Shown one piece after another: positions 795 to 14,832 of a stretch of 48,089 nucleotides of DNA (the first letter of the stretch is position 1; the number at the start of each line of letters is the position of its first letter). Under the pieces are notes generated by a model, which was given only the letters and a program-made list of their open reading frames with translations, was not told the DNA's origin and did no database searches. A program made the translations under genes and the position numbers. The stretch lies in IMG/VR virus record IMGVR_UViG_2648501149_000023. The stretch is one strand, 5' to 3'. Origin of the DNA: a virus. Taxonomy: Duplodnaviria > Heunggongvirae > Uroviricota > Caudoviricetes.

Positions 795-914
795 GTTAGT
801 TGCGCTCTGCTGCTGCCTTAGCCATTACCATATCCACCCAATTTCACCAGACATGATTCTCGCAATCACTATCATCACCAAAGTGATAATCACAACTTTA
901 ACTGGCGGCATCAT
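795..914 (-). CDS. Possible 39-aa hydrophobic peptide, translationally coupled to the upstream gene
   Basis: Hand translation MMPPVKVVIITLVMIVIARIMSGEIWVDMVMAKAAAERN; its ATG overlaps the TGA stop of the 911..1537 gene (ATGA); below the ORF-track size cutoff. Confidence 0.25.
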
Positions 915-1537
915 TTGCCATCCTGCTGCGGCGGTTCTGGTAGCGGCATCCAGTGTGACGGCTCACATACCCCCTCAACACCATTCATGTAAAAGAATTG
1001 AAATAACCCTTTACCTTTGTGAAACCCTACCATCTGCTCTTTTGTGTCTGAGCAATAAACCAAAACATCTTCTTCGCTTGGCATTCGCTCACTACAGCTT
1101 ATCCAACCATCCGGAGTTACCGGAGAGTTGCCGGGTTCTTTAATGTGCAAGCGAGGCTCACCATCTTTTGGTTCAGGCCACTGGCGCTCCATGTTGATCT
1201 TCAATTTATTTTCCATAGCAGCGGTAATTTCAGCATCACTGATACCAGCACGGCGCTGTGCATCCCACAACAGGAACTGCATATCAGCCCACTCGCTGAG
1301 ATCGTCAGGTTCGGCTGCGGCTTCCAGAGCCTCTTTTGAGAGGTGTTTCAGTGGACCAATGGGGCCAACGCAGCCAAATGTGGAGTCAGACCATTTGGCA
1401 TGCTCGTGGCGAATCTGTTCGCGTTCCAGTAATGCCAGTGCAATTCGTGCCAGTTCCATTTGTTCGCCACGAGTAAGCCCGTTATCAAGCGGATTTTTAA
1501 TGAATAATTCGATACGTTCTTTGGTAATAGTGGTCAT
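911..1537 (-). CDS. DUF551-domain (Eaa-like) early protein
   Basis: C-terminal region with ...CSERMPSEEDVLVY...HWMPLPEPP typical of DUF551 proteins of lambdoid early-left regions (from recall); start overlaps the upstream stop (ATGA). Confidence 0.55.
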   Translation of the reverse strand: MTTITKERIELFIKNPLDNGLTRGEQMELARIALALLEREQIRHEHAKWSDSTFGCVGPIGPLKHLSKEALEAAAEPDDLSEWADMQFLLWDAQRRAGISDAEITAAMENKLKINMERQWPEPKDGEPRLHIKEPGNSPVTPDGWISCSERMPSEEDVLVYCSDTKEQMVGFHKGKGLFQFFYMNGVEGVCEPSHWMPLPEPPQQDGK

Positions 1538-2049
1538 GCCGCGTTTCCTTCTTTCTTATTAACAATTACACCGTCATATATTTCATTAAGGTGCCCTCTC
1601 AACTCCATCCGCCTTAATGCAGATAACATGTAATCGCATTCAACCTGCTTATTCCCGGTAAATGGCTTATCGTCAGGATTACCCCAACAGCAATTACCCC
1701 TGGGCCATCCATGTACTTTCCGAACTCTTCCGTTAACAACGTGAAGTAATCCCCAGCCAGGAGGTAAATCCTCAACTGAAATAATTCCCGGCTCACTAAT
1801 AAAGAATCGCCAGTCGCCCATTCCAAGAGACGGATTTTTACGAAAACGCTTTTTTCTATCTGCCAACAAGTCAGCACGAGAACACTTCGCCTCTATCAGG
1901 CATGATGCTGAATTTCTGAATCCCATAGCATCTGGCTGCTCTCCGGTACTGGTTACAGCAACAAAGCGGTCATGAAAGCAAACCTTGAACCCGTTGCGCT
2001 TAAGGAACTTGTACGCAATCTGACAGAGTTCGCGGTGTGTTAACGCCAT
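1534..2049 (-). CDS. Putative PD-(D/E)XK-fold nuclease-like protein (171 aa)
   Basis: ATG at 2049 with GGAGAG RBS; translation contains ...GEQPDAMGF...CLIEAKCSRADL, which fits a D...E-x-K nuclease motif; the longer ORF-track start (2211) overlaps the upstream gene. Confidence 0.4.
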   Translation of the reverse strand: MALTHRELCQIAYKFLKRNGFKVCFHDRFVAVTSTGEQPDAMGFRNSASCLIEAKCSRADLLADRKKRFRKNPSLGMGDWRFFISEPGIISVEDLPPGWGLLHVVNGRVRKVHGWPRGNCCWGNPDDKPFTGNKQVECDYMLSALRRMELRGHLNEIYDGVIVNKKEGNAA

Positions 2050-2050
2050 A

Positions 2051-2758
2051 TCACTCTCCTTTGATGCGAATGCCTGCGGCGCGCTCGGCTTCGCTTTGTT
2101 CCCAAAACCACTTGTGAAGCTCCATAAGCTTTTCGTCAATCGGTGCATATTTGCAATTAAAGTAGGCCTGAGCATCTTTCTCAGATTCGTCCGGCAATTC
2201 GCCTGGGCCAAACAGTGTGTTATAAATCCATGCCAGTCCGCTCTTAGCGTCGCCAGTTGCCTGCCATTCGATAATGGCAGCCTGCATGACCAGAATGTTT
2301 TTCCCGATTAACAGGTCCAGTTCTTTGTACCGGTTGCGGATGTATGCATTCTCGCTTTGTAATTTTGCGTTGCGCTTTTCTGAGGCTTCAAGTAACGCCT
2401 GCTTATCGCGTAGCGCTTCTTCCAGTTCAGCAACATGGCATTCGCTATCAATAAGGTTGTTCTCTGCTGCTTCAAGCTCAACTCTCAGCTTCCCTACCGT
2501 TAGCGCAATATCCTCGTTCTCCTGATCGCGGCTTTTGATGTATTGCAGGTTTCTTTCCCGTTCATCCAGCAGTGCCAGCACGGTTTCTGGTCCGGTCAGA
2601 AATTTGAAGGCGTTGAGCGCATCAATATCCACACCGTAATCTTTAAGTTCCTGTTCACTTAACAAGTCATCATCAGCTGGCAACATTAACAGGCGTTCCA
2701 TTGCTGGAATTGCACGTTCCGCCACCTCACGCAGTGCCTGGTAATTAATTTCGCTCAC
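2051..2758 (-). CDS. Ead/Ea22-like coiled-coil early protein
   Basis: 235-aa acidic, coiled-coil-rich ORF in the early-left accessory region; GTG start overlapping the upstream TGA; family assignment from recall only. Confidence 0.45.
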   Translation of the reverse strand: MSEINYQALREVAERAIPAMERLLMLPADDDLLSEQELKDYGVDIDALNAFKFLTGPETVLALLDERERNLQYIKSRDQENEDIALTVGKLRVELEAAENNLIDSECHVAELEEALRDKQALLEASEKRNAKLQSENAYIRNRYKELDLLIGKNILVMQAAIIEWQATGDAKSGLAWIYNTLFGPGELPDESEKDAQAYFNCKYAPIDEKLMELHKWFWEQSEAERAAGIRIKGE

Positions 2759-3357: not shown

Positions 3358-3654
3358 TCAGTCATTACTGATAGCGCCATAGCGTGAGCGGTAATTACGC
3401 AGGCGCGGGTCGATATATTCAGGGAAGTGGGTATATGTGGCTTTGCGGAATGGTCGGATTGATGTCTGGTAAATTCGCTCGCGTTCTTCTTTCTCTGCAA
3501 GCCATATACAGTGGCGAAATTCCTTTTCCTCTTTCGTTTCCTGCGGTAGCGACATTATCCGATCGTAGTTTTTTCTGAATTTATCCAGCACCTCCGATAC
3601 GGAATTGCCGGAACAGCGGCGCGGGTCATCCACACCATACAGAGGCACTGGCAT
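3358..3654 (-). CDS. Hypothetical phage protein (98 aa)
   Basis: ORF immediately downstream of ssb on the same strand; no recognisable motif. Confidence 0.4.
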
Positions 3655-4061: not shown

Positions 4062-4666
4062 TAAGCAGCCGCTCCTTCTAATTCGTCTCGTCTGATGTTG
4101 TAAACGTCCTGCGCTTTGTGCTGCTCCGGTGTGCCTTCGAGCATCTTCCACGCTTTGGCGAACGCCTGTTTAAGCTCTTCTACGGTGTTTTTCTGCATTG
4201 CTGCGTCAGTGAATGCTTTTAGAACCTGTTCAGGTGTAGGTGATGGTTTTGATTGCTTTGCTGCTGCGTTCTGCTGATGTTTATGCTCGTCGGTATCTGC
4301 ATCTTTCGCATCATCAATGCCGAACAAACCATTGAGGCAATACTTGCGTGCATAAGAGCTTGTAGCTCCCGTAACTTGTGCAGAATCCATTCCTTTCTTG
4401 CTTTCTTCCTCTCGTGCAAGAGCGGTTGCCGTATGACTGTTTTCGCCATCGGTAATAGTTGCCGTGGCTTTCACATAATACCGATCACCAATCAACACAA
4501 CTTCATCGCTGATTGATAAAAACAGGCCATTCAGTAACGGCTTAACGCCTTCAAGAATGTCTTCGCAGCTTCTGTATTTATATTTACCGAATGAGTTGTA
4601 CTGATTCTTTGGCGCATTCAGATTCTCCTGAATAGCTGCCAGTCTTGCGTAAAATTCTTTGCTCAT
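4061..4666 (-). CDS. erf: Erf-family single-strand annealing recombinase (P22 Erf-like)
   Basis: MSKEFYARLAAIQENLNAPKNQYNSFGKYKYRSCEDILEGVKPLL... matches the P22 Erf N-terminus from recall; ATG at 4666; the ORF track extends to 4696. Confidence 0.7.
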   Translation of the reverse strand: MSKEFYARLAAIQENLNAPKNQYNSFGKYKYRSCEDILEGVKPLLNGLFLSISDEVVLIGDRYYVKATATITDGENSHTATALAREEESKKGMDSAQVTGATSSYARKYCLNGLFGIDDAKDADTDEHKHQQNAAAKQSKPSPTPEQVLKAFTDAAMQKNTVEELKQAFAKAWKMLEGTPEQHKAQDVYNIRRDELEGAAA

Positions 4667-5215: not shown

Positions 5216-6184
5216 TTAGTAGGTTATTTTTGTTGCGAATACTTCGCCTTTTACGATGGCTGTTATGATATTTTTAGCAACATCTTCTGATGCACCAACC
5301 TTGATAAGGTCAGCAAGTATTTTGTTATTTACTTCTTTCCGGTGAGCTTTATCCTTTGCTCTACGCTCTTCTTCGTCCTTGATTCTTTTTTCTTCTGCTA
5401 TTCTGGCTTGCTCTTTTGCTTCAGCCTCGCGACGGATTCGTTCAGCCTCCTCATGTGCTTTTCTGCGTTCTGCTTCAATTGCTGCCTGCTTTTCTCTTTC
5501 AGCTCGTTCTGCTGCCTCTTTTGCTTCGCGCTGTGCTCGTTGCTCGGCTTCAATGCGTTCACGCTCTGCACGTTCCGCTGCGGCCTTAGCTTCTGCTTCT
5601 CGCCTTGCTGCTGCTTCAATTTCGGCTTTTGCCTTTGCTTCGGCTTCTGCTCTGGCTTTCTCTTTAGCTTCTCTTTTTAATCGTTCTTCATGCTCTCGCT
5701 TTTCCTGCTCCGCTTTGAGTCTTGCCTCTTCTCTTTGGCGGTCAAATTCGCGATCCATCAAAATAGCTATTTCATGGTCATACTCAATTTGCTTTGCGAG
5801 AGCTTCAGCTGCTGCCTTAGCTTCTTCTTCGGCTTTAATCCGCGCCTGTTCTTCCTCATAATCAGTAAGAGGCTGGCGCGCCTTGGTTTTCAGTTCATCA
5901 AGGCGATCGCGCACTGTCTTGCGGTTAGCATCAATTAGCTTTGGAATTTCCTTCAGTTCAGCAACAAGGTCTTTGCCAAGACCATCGAGATATGTTTTCG
6001 TCTGCGCAACTTTATACGCCAGAGAAGCGATCTCCTTTCTGCCCTTTGCCGTTGTGATATCAGGCACAAAGGACATAACTTCACGTTCAACCTTTTGAAG
6101 GATTTCTTCAATCTGGTCGGCAGACTGAAATACAGTCATTGCATTTGCTTTTTCAATAACAACTAAATCTGTTACTTCACTCAT
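5216..6184 (-). CDS. Coiled-coil protein with a long E/K/A/R-rich repeat region (322 aa)
   Basis: ATG at 6184 preceded by GGAGGA; N-terminal globular part then about 150 aa of ...EAEAKAKAEIEAAARREAEAK... ; possibly DUF1351-like (recall, unverified). Confidence 0.6.
   Translation of the reverse strand: MSEVTDLVVIEKANAMTVFQSADQIEEILQKVEREVMSFVPDITTAKGRKEIASLAYKVAQTKTYLDGLGKDLVAELKEIPKLIDANRKTVRDRLDELKTKARQPLTDYEEEQARIKAEEEAKAAAEALAKQIEYDHEIAILMDREFDRQREEARLKAEQEKREHEERLKREAKEKARAEAEAKAKAEIEAAARREAEAKAAAERAERERIEAEQRAQREAKEAAERAEREKQAAIEAERRKAHEEAERIRREAEAKEQARIAEEKRIKDEEERRAKDKAHRKEVNNKILADLIKVGASEDVAKNIITAIVKGEVFATKITY
5390..5800. repeat. Low-complexity GC-skewed coding repeat (encodes the KAEAE-type region)
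   Basis: Degenerate reiteration of gcttc/gcctc/ttctgc units on the plus strand; produces several spurious ORFs on both strands. Confidence 0.6.
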
Positions 6185-6339: not shown

Positions 6340-6366
6340 CCAAAAATAAAGGCCGACTATGCGGCC
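6340..6366 (-). terminator. Intrinsic terminator after the 6357..6980 gene
   Basis: GGCCGactatgCGGCC hairpin with the stop codon in the loop, followed on the minus strand by TTTATTTTTGG. Confidence 0.55.
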
Positions 6367-6980
6367 TCGGAAGGAAGTCCAATCATCTTATTCAAATCTT
6401 CTACCCGTAAAGCAGGAAGTGCTGCACTTGCTTTATCTGCTTCTTTTGGTAGCAACTCTTTGCTTTCAGGCCAGACCTCAATAAGTCGCTTAACTGTTGT
6501 GACTGAGTTCAAAGCAGCCCATACATTTGATTCGATATCCTTTTTCCTGGCTTCAAGTTTTTGTTGCAATGCGCAGATTTCATCAAACCTTTTTGTTATT
6601 TTGTGTTCTGCGTCAAACATGCATTTATCTTTGTCGGGGGTAGGGAGCAATATATCTTCACCGTTGCCGTCTTTTCCGTATGAATGCCAGCCAACCCTTC
6701 TTCCAGATACAGTCAGATAAATCGAACTTGAACTGACATCGCATGAGTAAAATGAACATCCAAGCTTTTGAAGTTCCTCACTTGCAGCCATTAACTTTGA
6801 TGCCAGCTGGTCCACTTCTTCGGTTTTCTTTTTCCCGCCAAACGCAATAACTCTGGCGTCAAGTGCAAGCTGGTTCTTTAACTTTGTTACTTCTTCAAGT
6901 TCAGTGAAAACCCCAGACTTAATTAAAGCGTTACGAGCGATTTCCTCTTTCATTCTCGTAGTTAAGCGGATTGATGACAT
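6357..6980 (-). CDS. Hypothetical accessory protein (207 aa), own RBS and terminator
   Basis: ATG at 6980 (MSSIRLTTRMKEEIARNALIKSG...) preceded by GAGAGGA; no recognisable domain; occupies the sieB/esc position of P22-like genomes. Confidence 0.55.
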   Translation of the reverse strand: MSSIRLTTRMKEEIARNALIKSGVFTELEEVTKLKNQLALDARVIAFGGKKKTEEVDQLASKLMAASEELQKLGCSFYSCDVSSSSIYLTVSGRRVGWHSYGKDGNGEDILLPTPDKDKCMFDAEHKITKRFDEICALQQKLEARKKDIESNVWAALNSVTTVKRLIEVWPESKELLPKEADKASAALPALRVEDLNKMIGLPSEAA

Positions 6981-7116
6981 ATTAATTCCTCTCAAATAAG
7001 TGGTTTGCTGCCTAATTTCATTTTCTGGCGACCAACACAAGTCACACCCATTTCACTGCGTGGCTTGCGGTAGTAAATACGGTTATTTATGTCATTAAAA
7101 ACCAGCGTGAGCGTGG

Positions 7117-8047: not shown

Positions 8048-8701
8048 TTAACTAAATGTCTCTTCAGGCCACTGGCTGGCGATAACTTTCCCTACTACGG
8101 AACAGCTATCATTGCATGGGATCATTGGATATTGCGGGTTTAGTGGTTGTAGGAACACCTGACCGCTATCCCTGATCAGTTTCTTGAAGGTAAACTCGTC
8201 ACCACCAAGTCTGGCTATGCAGAAATCACCTGGCTCAACAGCCTGCTCAGGGTCAACGAGAATTAACATCCCGTCAGGAAAGCTTGGCTTGGATCCTGTT
8301 GGTGCGGTCATGGAATTACCTTCAACTTCAAGCCAAAACGCACAATCACTGGCTTTTTTGGTTGTGCTGACCCATCTCTCCGCATCGCCTTTGGTAAAGG
8401 TTCTAAGCTCAGGCGAGAACATCCCGGCCTGAACATGAGAAAAAACAGGGTACTCATATTGTTTTTTAACGGGGGCAGATGAGTATTCGCCAACAGGTGA
8501 AAATGTACCGTCGTGGTTGAATGAGACGTTATCAATACCAAGGTATTTAAACACCACACCAATCTCGTCAAGAGATGGATGACGAGATCCGCGCAACCAG
8601 TGACCAATTCCACCCTGCGTCATACCAAGCTCTTCAGCTAACTTCTCTTGAGTTATGCCGAGTTCTTTCATTCTGGATCTAGCCAGTTCATACCATTTCA
8701 T
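8048..8701 (-). CDS. cI: CI-type prophage repressor (HTH plus S24 LexA-like autocleavage domain)
   Basis: N-terminal HTH (...[21 protein letters not shown]...) and C-terminal S24 domain with G-N-S-M and F-K-K-L catalytic motifs (...[10 protein letters not shown]...[28 protein letters not shown]...); ATG at 8701 with AGGA at 7 nt spacing. Confidence 0.9.
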
Positions 8702-8818
8702 TTTCATATCCTTATTATTACGCTCTGTACTAAAACCATCCATGCACAAGATGTATTTTTTGTTTGCATTCCAAAAGTACATGTCGTATTATTGTTTCAT
8801 GGTTACTATGGAGGGCAT
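8702..8818. promoter_or_regulatory. OR / pR / pRM divergent control region
   Basis: 117-bp interval between divergent cI and cro starts with repeated AAAAGTACA-type elements; operators not individually resolved. Confidence 0.5.
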
Positions 8819-10515: not shown

Positions 10516-12396
10516 ATGACACCAAGTGAACTTAGCGACCTGCTTTGGGCGCAGGTTGACAGGGTGGCTCCGCACCTGTTGCCAAACGGCAAGAAAGAGG
10601 GGCATGAGTGGGTTGCCGGTAACGTCAACGGTGACAAGGGAAACAGCCTTAAGGTCAACCTTAGCGGCAAGAAAAAATGGGCTGATTTCGCTGAGGGAGA
10701 CGGCGGTGACATGCTTGATTTGTGGATGGCATGTCGTGGAATTAACCTGCATCAGGCTATGCAGGAAGCGAAAGCCTTTCTCGGTATCAAGGATGACGAT
10801 CACCATTTCGATGCCAAACGTGAGAAAAAATTCTCCAGACCTGATCGCAAGAAAATCGCCCGCTACGTTACCAGAACAGAATCCCATCTTGAGTACCTGC
10901 AATCGCGTGGCATATCGCCAGAAATCGTAAAGCGCTACGAGGTTGTCAGCGGCAAGGTGTGGAATGGAGAGCTGGAACTGGATGCTCTGGTGATTCCGTA
11001 CAAACGCGATGGTGAGTTGTTGCAGGTCAAGCGAATCAGCACTGAGCGCCCGGACGGGAAGAAAGTCATTATGGCAGAAGGTGATTGCGAACCTTGTCTG
11101 TTCGGATGGCACGCTCTGGACGCTGGCGTGAGGGCGGTTGTACTTTGCGAAGGCGAAATTGATTGTATGAGCTATGCGCAATACGGCATCTCGGCGTTAT
11201 CCGTGCCGTTTGGTGGCGGGAAAGGCGCTAAGCAGCAGTGGATTGAGTTTGAGTATCACAATCTCGACAGGTTTGAGGAAATATTCATCTCGATGGACGT
11301 TGATGATGTTGGTCGTGAAGCCGCAAGGGAAATCGCAAGCCGACTCGGTGAACATCGTTGCCGTCTTGTTACTCTGCCGTACAAAGACATCAACGAATGC
11401 CTGATGAACGGTGTTACCGAGGATGAAATCTGGCAGTACATCGGCACGGCATCCTACTTCGATCCTGAAGAACTCTACAGCGCGCGAGAGTTTTACCAGG
11501 ACACTATCAACGCTTTCTACGGCAAGCAGCAGTATCTGTTTAATCCACCGTGGGAATCTCTGGCAGATAAATTCCAGTTCCGTGAGGCCGAGTTGACGCT
11601 GGTCAATGGTGTGAACGGTCACGGAAAAACGGAGGTTGTCGGGCATATGGCACTTGAGGCAATGCGTCAGGGTGTGAAGACGTGCATCGCGTCACTTGAG
11701 CTGAAGCCTGGTATTCTCCTTAAGCGCCTTACCCGTCAGGCGACGTGCTGCAAGATGCCGCCAGTGCTGGAAATTGACTCTGCATTTAAATTTTATGACG
11801 AAAGACTTTGGGTGTTTGGTCTGACCGGAACGGCGAAAGCCGACAGGCTGATCGAAATATTCGACTACGCTCGCCGCCGATACGGGATCCAGTTATTCAT
11901 CATCGACAGCCTGATGAAATGCGGCATAGGTGACGATGACTATAACGGGCAGAAAGCATTTGTTGACTCGATTTGTGACTTCAAAAACAAAACAAACTCC
12001 CACGTCATTCTCGTTACTCACTCCAGAAAAGGAGACAGCGAAGAAAAACCAACCGGGAAAATGGACGTAAAAGGCTCTGGAGCGATAACAGACCTGACAG
12101 ACAACCTTTTCATCATCTGGCGTAACAAGGCTCGCGAGAGAGCGTTACAAAGAGTTCAGAGTGGTGAAAAGATGTCAGAGAAGGACGAACAGCTACTGGC
12201 GTCTCCTGCATCTGTTTTGATGCTTGAAAAACAACGTAACGGCGAAGGTTGGGAAGGTGGTGTCCCGTTGTTCCTTGACGAGCAATCGCACCAGTTCCTG
12301 CAACTTGAATCAGGATCGCCATATAGCTACATCGCCAATATGCCGAAATCGGAATATAACGAGGCGTGGCGACAGGAAAACGTGACGGAGTATTAA
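10516..12396 (+). CDS. Bifunctional primase-helicase (TOPRIM primase plus DnaB-like helicase)
   Basis: 626-aa ORF with TOPRIM-like motifs (...VVLCEGEIDCMSYAQ..., ...FISMDVDDVG...), Walker A (NGVNGHGKTE) and Walker B (LFIIDSLM); ATG preceded by GAGGGA. Confidence 0.8.
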   Translation: MTPSELSDLLWAQVDRVAPHLLPNGKKEGHEWVAGNVNGDKGNSLKVNLSGKKKWADFAEGDGGDMLDLWMACRGINLHQAMQEAKAFLGIKDDDHHFDAKREKKFSRPDRKKIARYVTRTESHLEYLQSRGISPEIVKRYEVVSGKVWNGELELDALVIPYKRDGELLQVKRISTERPDGKKVIMAEGDCEPCLFGWHALDAGVRAVVLCEGEIDCMSYAQYGISALSVPFGGGKGAKQQWIEFEYHNLDRFEEIFISMDVDDVGREAAREIASRLGEHRCRLVTLPYKDINECLMNGVTEDEIWQYIGTASYFDPEELYSAREFYQDTINAFYGKQQYLFNPPWESLADKFQFREAELTLVNGVNGHGKTEVVGHMALEAMRQGVKTCIASLELKPGILLKRLTRQATCCKMPPVLEIDSAFKFYDERLWVFGLTGTAKADRLIEIFDYARRRYGIQLFIIDSLMKCGIGDDDYNGQKAFVDSICDFKNKTNSHVILVTHSRKGDSEEKPTGKMDVKGSGAITDLTDNLFIIWRNKARERALQRVQSGEKMSEKDEQLLASPASVLMLEKQRNGEGWEGGVPLFLDEQSHQFLQLESGSPYSYIANMPKSEYNEAWRQENVTEY

Positions 12397-14190: not shown

Positions 14191-14473
14191 CCTACGCAAA
14201 GAAGCGCGCGGCAGAGAATGCCAGGTACGTATTTACGGCGTATGCAATGGCAATCCTGAAACTACAGTTCTGGCACATTACCGGATGGCTGGAATTTGCG
14301 GAACTGGAATGAAACCTGACGACCTGATCGGTGCATGGGCTTGTAGTGACTGCCACGCGGAGATCGACCGACGCACAAGGATTCTCGACAACAAAGACGC
14401 CAGACTTTACCACCTCGAAGGCGTGATCAGGACGCAGGCGATACTGCTGAAGGAGGGGAAGATTAAGTCATGA
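14183..14473 (+). CDS. DUF1364-family protein (YbcO-like)
   Basis: MANLRKEARGRECQVRIYGVCNGNPETTVLAHYRMAGICGTGMKPDD...CSDCHAEIDRR... resembles DLP12 YbcO (recall). Confidence 0.7.
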   Translation: MANLRKEARGRECQVRIYGVCNGNPETTVLAHYRMAGICGTGMKPDDLIGAWACSDCHAEIDRRTRILDNKDARLYHLEGVIRTQAILLKEGKIKS

Positions 14474-14832
14474 ACGAATATCAGTTTGTGCTTCCTTACC
14501 CGCCGTCGGTGAATACCTACTGGCGAAGACGGGGAAGCCAATACTACATCAGCGATAAAGGTCAGAAATACCGAAAAGACGTTCAGCAAATCATCCGCCA
14601 ACTCAAGTTAGACATTTTCACCAAATCACGACTCCGCATCAAAGTCATCGCAGACGTTCCAGACTCCCGCCGCCGCGACCTCGATAACATCCTGAAAGGT
14701 TTACTCGACTCACTTATCCACGCCGGATCTGCGGAAGACGACGAGCAATTCGATGACATTCGCGTAATTCGTGGTGTGAAAGTACCAGGCGGAAGGCTTG
14801 GAATAAAAATCACCGAACTGGAGAACGTATGA
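14470..14832 (+). CDS. rusA: RusA Holliday-junction resolvase
   Basis: 120-aa product with ...VPDSRRRDLDNILKGLLDSL...GGRLGIKITELENV, the conserved RusA catalytic region. Confidence 0.9.
   Translation: MNEYQFVLPYPPSVNTYWRRRGSQYYISDKGQKYRKDVQQIIRQLKLDIFTKSRLRIKVIADVPDSRRRDLDNILKGLLDSLIHAGSAEDDEQFDDIRVIRGVKVPGGRLGIKITELENV

Follow-up and report, generated by a model that had tools for sequence, protein, structure and literature searches.

A gene of 171 codons on the minus strand of a 48,089-nucleotide stretch of tailed-phage DNA (Caudoviricetes; IMG/VR record IMGVR_UViG_2648501149_000023; we refer to the whole stretch as the window) encodes a PD-(D/E)XK nuclease that is a divergent sister of the MmcB-like family. 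A preliminary description of the sequence had drawn attention to a D…ExK motif in the product and had placed the gene, translationally coupled to its neighbours, in an early-left accessory cluster. Fold, superfamily and nearest family are known already; what is new is that a very common phage protein labelled 'hypothetical' is assigned to the MmcB-like branch and that its conserved residues are defined. Naming it an MmcB-related PD-(D/E)XK nuclease closes an annotation gap without adding a new kind of system. As regards function, we lean towards a stand-alone, metal-dependent, structure- or lesion-selective DNA endonuclease that aids phage DNA metabolism in lytic growth.

How much does the motif tell us by itself? 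The minus-strand translation is a single open frame of 171 codons followed by a TGA stop, in which PDAMGF occupies residues 39-44 and CLIEAK residues 50-55. A loose D-x(8-25)-[DE]-x-K pattern, however, is found in 31 of the 67 open reading frames (ORFs) of at least 100 aa in the window and in 56% of shuffles of the nuclease protein (5% when the P is included), so that the motif alone is no better than chance and the case for a nuclease has to be made from conservation and fold instead. To that end we counted conservation over 420 distinct members of the family whose sequences span the core. D60 is invariant; E37, D40, E53 and K55 are each present in all but one (419 of 420); an acidic residue (D or E) fills position 27 in 411; and S57, R58, D64, K67, R70, G78, R81 and W99 are near-invariant. 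The helix motif that follows ExK and is common to MmcB-like proteins (Table 1) was defined from these counts together with a hidden Markov model (HMM) alignment to 3dnx, the PF06319 alignment and hhalign. Only two of the 420 sequences, P0154 and P0184, are without the D…ExK residues, with HxV standing for ExK in P0154; these may be degenerate copies.

The near-invariance of an acidic residue at position 27 and of E37, D40, E53 and K55 on a PD-(D/E)XK fold suggests that catalysis has been retained. Inactive members and RNases do occur in the superfamily, and the protein might in principle use the same fold only to bind DNA, without catalysis, or to cut RNA. Loss of a catalytic position in no more than one sequence in 420 argues for retained catalysis, though, and the nearest relatives act on DNA (PMC9578287, PMC1189080), which makes this reading very improbable.

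An AlphaFold2 model of the protein, built on 34 homologues (pLDDT 85, pTM 0.79), runs α(5-18) β(23-25) β(41-45) β(48-54) α(58-64) β(80-85), then a β-hairpin and, at the C-terminus, a long helix, and it contains the αβββαβ core of the PD-(D/E)XK phosphodiesterase superfamily (Pfam clan PDDEXK). D40 is predicted to lie directly ahead of β2 and E53-A-K55 to close β3, which is the canonical layout. Structurally the model comes closest to PD-(D/E)XK nucleases: the MmcB-like protein 3dnx ranks first, followed by SdaI (7.8), AF2093, AF1548, Can2, PaqCI, NgoMIV, NucS, FokI, Hjc/Hje and VRR-NUC. In a Foldseek search of the PDB, 3dnx, a solved structure of the MmcB-like family, is the sole significant match (E 1e-5, TM 0.58/0.66) and is matched over the whole chain; in BFVD, which holds predicted viral structures, the same search finds several phage proteins annotated 'MmcB-like DNA repair protein'. 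The D…ExK motif first proposed is thus present, near-invariant and on the canonical β2/β3 positions of a confident model, and the nuclease fold is borne out by residue conservation, by this placement, by the match to 3dnx and by profile links to the MmcB-like and Hjc families.

These profile links hold for the family but not for the protein taken singly. Searched by itself against Pfam, NCBIfam, PADLOC and the sequences of the PDB, the 171-aa protein finds nothing significant (the matches among PDB sequences, lectin PVL and Toc34, were rejected as noise); it stays unmatched by PF06319, the MmcB-like family, even at E <= 1, and is likewise unmatched by PF01870 (Hjc). When 50 diverse members of the family are scanned against Pfam, six touch MmcB-like (best E 2.9e-4) and six touch Hjc, all below threshold. 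The relatives peak at 18.5 bits against a PF06319 cut-off of 22, the best being a Vibrio phage relative, and do not exceed ~17.7 bits against a PF01870 cut-off of 21.1. Because the PF06319 threshold is not reached, we claim no formal membership of the MmcB-like family. A profile of the 50 members, run against 177,635 PDB sequences, does find 3dnx (E 4.5e-4) and, weakly, Hjc (E ~0.5). Comparison by hhalign of the family with 13 PF06319 proteins, all of them N-terminal fragments recovered via a 51-residue fragment of 3dnx, gives a probability of 97.6% and E 4.3e-12 over 75 columns that take in the catalytic half only. The columns pair (P)D, ExK, SRxDFxxDxK and the D-x-R-F strand, and the ExK-SRxDF-x-x-D-x-K signature that follows β3 reads IEAKCSRADLLADRKK in the 171-aa protein against IECKSSRADFxSDxK in the PF06319 sequences. 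In PHROGs the protein falls into groups 9263 (E 2e-122) and 631 (E 3e-94), neither of which has a known function; group 5429, 'DNA repair protein', is touched weakly by the 171-aa protein and touched by all members.

The phage family and the MmcB-like family (DUF1052/COG5321, with 3dnx, which is SPO1766 of Ruegeria pomeroyi, and MmcB of Caulobacter crescentus) therefore share a layout, E..(P)D on β2 and ExK on β3, as well as the SRxDFxxDxK stretch and a later D-x-R-(F/Y) strand, and both consist of small, single-domain proteins. They also differ. Identity to 3dnx is ~23%; compared with MmcB, the phage protein has an extra segment, K66-G78 (KKRFRKNPSLGMG), and a C-terminal region (GWGLL, KPF..NKQ.E, RR) that is distinct and conserved within the phage family. 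Finally, the phage family is borne by phages of Gammaproteobacteria and other hosts, whereas MmcB-like genes sit mainly on alphaproteobacterial chromosomes (PMC3424549).

Given this kinship, the protein could be a functional equivalent of MmcB that cuts DNA at bulky adducts or interstrand cross-links, which would allow replication of phage or host templates hit by the DNA damage that induces the prophage. MmcB, a PD-(D/E)XK endonuclease induced in the SOS response, shields Caulobacter from cisplatin and mitomycin C, and its proposed role is to handle cross-links together with translesion polymerases (PMC9578287). Not only are MmcB-like proteins nearest to the phage protein in both sequence and structure, but the early genes of a prophage are also activated by damage, here via cleavage of the S24-type repressor (8048-8782). 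Set against these parallels, the protein lies below the PF06319 threshold and has both the K66-G78 insertion and a C-terminal region unlike that of MmcB, the family is also found in virulent phages, which are not damage-induced, and translesion polymerases are not encoded by the phage here. On this evidence we doubt strongly that MmcB and the phage nuclease do the same job.

To the archaeal Holliday-junction resolvases of the Hjc type (PF01870; 1hh1, 4tkd, 2eo0, 1ob8) the phage family may be a more distant relative. The two have in common a PD-(D/E)XK core, the order E…D…ExK and a comparably small size, and the sequence links between them are weak but reproducible. DUF1052 itself has been linked to archaeal junction resolvases (P ~1e-7, PMC1189080) and appears as family 92 in PMC3424549. 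Might the protein then be a true, dimeric, Hjc-like resolvase, acting on the recombination intermediates made by Erf? Besides the weak Pfam and PDB matches to Hjc and the DUF1052 relation, its small size is compatible with such a role, as are an operon shared with Erf and Abc2 and the presence of NinB and NinG as neighbours in some loci. The same phage, however, encodes the junction resolvase RusA (14470-14832, plus strand; PF05866, E 4e-16), so that a plain resolvase would be redundant and such a role is less likely; elsewhere the gene lies beside NinG, and nothing in Hjc corresponds to the conserved C-terminal region (W99-G100, E137, R146-R147). We therefore rate a true resolvase as improbable. 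A 626-aa protein at 10516-12396 (plus strand) has an apparent counterpart in a related prophage of E. coli LR-24 that is annotated as toprim-domain-containing. With RusA and this putative toprim-type protein, the phage has a replication and recombination toolkit that is independent of the nuclease.

The preferred reading is a stand-alone endonuclease of phage DNA metabolism, and the loci of the family show no dedicated partner. Around 81 close loci, 703 neighbour proteins fall into 369 clusters. For more distant loci we scanned neighbours from 80 dereplicated viral loci with Pfam, 150 on each side, and no Pfam family recurs in more than three of the 150 either downstream or upstream; nor does a conserved partner gene emerge from the close loci, the dereplicated loci or seven annotated phage records. 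With no conserved neighbour across the 80 loci, the nuclease would work without a partner gene. Where neighbours in the distant loci can be named they include NinB, NinG, DnaB, SSB, Rep-O, RecT, an Rv2179c-like exonuclease, Lar and several DNA methyltransferases, so the general setting is one of replication, recombination and methylase genes, and the gene is a cassette, sufficient in itself, within the portion of phage genomes given to DNA metabolism.

In a few virulent phages the company is more specific. A homologue lies directly upstream of a DNA primase gene, abutting or overlapping it, in Salmonella phage Vi01 (L082, 4980-6661) and in the Vibrio phages D507 (L088, 3480-5239) and PVA3 (L083, 4869-6607). 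The Vi01 and D507 primases are 46% identical and represent one lineage and that of PVA3 is barely similar to them, so we count approximately two independent adjacencies; the large downstream proteins in ValSw4_1 and PG28 have no primase match. We take the adjacency as suggestive though not general. RusA, NinG/Rap and T7 endonuclease I are small nucleases that phages encode in their replication and recombination modules and can do without in the laboratory, and T7 gene 3 lies near the primase-helicase gene. The homologues in Vi01, D507 and PVA3 resemble T7 gene 3 in being near a primase as well, a likeness drawn by function only.

Three metagenomic sequences look like fusions: P0188 reads as nuclease plus PF04447, P0243 as nuclease plus DUF551, and P0142 (428 aa) has a TniB-like AAA+ ATPase (PF05621, E 3e-6) N-terminal to a full-length nuclease domain. 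Each is a single case and may be an artefact of gene calling; P0188 and P0243 could be real fusions or products of frameshifts.

An accessory gene in such varied company invites a quite different interpretation, namely that the nuclease serves host takeover, anti-defence or exclusion. Its target would be the DNA of the host or of a competitor, or else a nucleic acid that forms part of a host defence system, and the phage would gain indirectly and not through processing of its own DNA. Its slot is mosaic and differs between near-identical prophages, and the diversity of neighbour clusters in the close loci is in keeping with this; restriction-alleviation genes (Lar, Ral) and DNA methyltransferases are often nearby; the anti-RecBCD gene abc2 is in the same operon; and the gene has spread horizontally between lambdoid, P22-like, P1/P7-like and virulent phages. 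And yet none of the PADLOC-DB 2.0 defence models matches the 171-aa protein even at E <= 10, and no conserved immunity, sensor or partner gene accompanies it. The apparently stable place beside primase in virulent Ackermannviridae suits DNA metabolism better than it suits an arms-race gene, and the relatives of known function that come closest are nucleases of DNA repair and of junctions. We consider this interpretation unlikely. In the absence of a PADLOC hit and of a conserved partner, and with the family present in virulent phages, defence and anti-defence have no positive support, and the context favours DNA metabolism in lytic growth.

When would such an endonuclease be made? Upstream of the nuclease gene and on the same strand are the cI-like S24/HTH repressor gene, a pL-like promoter (7922-7894), N, Erf (4064-4666) and Abc2 (3361-3654), and the right half of the window holds P22-type portal, scaffold and capsid genes. 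The DNA is that of a P22-like prophage and the region its leftward early operon; the early-left placement given in the preliminary description is right. A promoter scan returned no promoter-like site of the nuclease gene's own, and terminator-like sites at 6368 and 6224 lie downstream of pL and N with the nuclease gene beyond both. A copy of the gene is carried by P7, where it is annotated upf89.0, 'unknown protein function' (L001, 4001-4516), in the 'hea' operon; a predicted C1-repressor operator is annotated upstream (L001, 6842-6858), and other members of the operon are an Ead-like gene and the gene of a putative tyrosine phosphatase. From the P7 operator, the missing promoter and the position behind terminator-like sites we infer expression in the lytic phase.

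Under the reading we prefer, the gene would be transcribed within the delayed-early pL operon after antitermination by N, translated by coupling to the neighbouring genes, and expressed in lytic growth or upon induction and not in the lysogen. The enzyme would cut DNA according to structure or lesion (branched, stalled-fork or cross-linked DNA) and not according to sequence, and it may thereby aid the phage in replicating, recombining or repairing its DNA, as an accessory function that is dispensable and moves horizontally.

Several points weigh against this proposal. All that speaks for expression from pL is gene order and consensus scans, RusA is already available to the phage, and the protein reaches no threshold in Pfam, NCBIfam or PADLOC. 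Adjacency to primase is confined to two or three lineages and does not occur in the survey of 80 loci. Hyper-variable accessory slots are also typical of anti-defence and host-takeover genes, and a near-identical prophage has another small ORF in the slot of the nuclease. This is the P22-like prophage of E. coli LR-24, which adjoins sbcB and is ~97% identical over 74% of window positions 1-24000. There (L247, 2536-4037) a 63-aa ORF and a DUF550 pseudogene fragment replace the nuclease between Ea22-like and pyrophosphohydrolase genes that flank the slot as they do in the window, so that the slot behaves as an exchangeable cassette site.

Table 1. Coordinates of the nuclease gene, its junctions, predicted functional codons and immediate neighbours in the window.
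Feature	Position	Strand	Remarks
PD-(D/E)XK nuclease coding sequence (MmcB-like lineage; PHROG 9263/631)	1534..2049	-	stop codon included
Predicted active-site codons	1885..1941	-	E37 1939-1941, P39-D40 1930-1935, E53-A54-K55 1885-1893
Codons for S57-R58-x-D60-(F/L)61-x-x-D64-x-x-K67-x-F69-R70	1840..1881	-	helix motif after ExK
Shine-Dalgarno AAGGAG	2056..2061	-	6 nt 5' of ATG (2049-2047), within 3' end of Ea22-like gene; junction sequence AAAGGAGAGTGATATG
Stop-start junction TGAtATG, Ea22-like gene to nuclease gene	2047..2053	-	TGA 2053-2051, ATG one base later
ATGA overlap of nuclease TGA with start of dATP/dGTP pyrophosphohydrolase-DUF551 gene	1534..1537	-	sequence reading
Upstream neighbour, Ead/Ea22-like protein	2051..2758	-	Pfam PF13935 (Ead_Ea22), E 3e-31; context, no functional partner
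Downstream neighbour, MazZ-type dATP/dGTP pyrophosphohydrolase + DUF551	911..1537	-	PF04447 E 3.6e-42, PF04448 E 6e-19; context only

The boundaries of the gene are well defined (Table 1). The 171-aa ORF is real, with a strong Shine-Dalgarno sequence ahead of its ATG; a longer, TTG-initiated ORF (1534-2211, 225 aa) was rejected, as homologues start at M1 or a few residues from it. With a TGAtATG junction upstream and an ATGA overlap downstream, the arrangement needed for translational coupling is present at both ends of the gene, in agreement with the coupling to Ea22-like and DUF551 neighbours proposed at the outset. The identities of these two neighbours likewise stand, on Pfam matches to Ead_Ea22 on the one side and to the pyrophosphohydrolase and DUF551 on the other. 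A phage dATP/dGTP pyrophosphohydrolase, MazZ, that likewise carries DUF551 has been described (PMC10834534). Neither neighbour is conserved across the loci of the family.

The family is large and widely distributed. A word-indexed search returned 321 clusters at 90% identity, and among 1.84 billion representatives there are 2,622 clusters at 50% identity (E <= 1e-3). Near-identical DNA is found in 137 phage records, mostly of Stx1- and Stx2-converting phages and also of TL-2011b/c and P7. Of 5,426 complete E. coli genomes, 931 (~17%) carry the gene; 250 of its places there lie on plasmids, which fits P1/P7-type phage-plasmids such as P7. By tblastn the family extends to 643 phage records, including those of virulent Ackermannviridae (Vi01, Limestone-type Dickeya phages, Klebsiella phage May and Serratia phage phiMAM1), many Vibrio phages and one Riemerella phage. 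Throughout GenBank, RefSeq/PGAP, UniRef and PHROGs the label is 'hypothetical'. A literature search returned no study of this gene, and a modelling review of the exo-xis region mentions no nuclease.

Most of the matching records of Stx-converting phages thus carry the gene, as do P7-type phage-plasmids and virulent Ackermannviridae employed in phage therapy and biocontrol, and it may affect prophage induction under DNA damage. We think it rather improbable that PHROG 631/9263 constitutes a distinct, widely shared phage nuclease for processing replication forks or lesions, or else a new anti-defence nuclease with a nucleic-acid target. Were the fork- or lesion-processing version true, such an enzyme would be fixed beside primase in Ackermannviridae and some Vibrio phages and would travel as a portable cassette in temperate enterobacterial phages, Shiga-toxin phages included, where its activity at induction would influence phage yield, and hence toxin output, after treatment with DNA-damaging antibiotics.

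Elsewhere in the pL operon, between N and a 322-aa charged protein rich in E, K and A (5216-6184), the minus strand encodes a 227-aa protein (6357-7040) with a Pfam match to Nmad5, 'nucleotide modification associated domain 5' (E 1.7e-69). Such a gene is unusual in the early-left region of a P22-like phage. A homologue of the 322-aa protein is labelled 'TolA' by PGAP.

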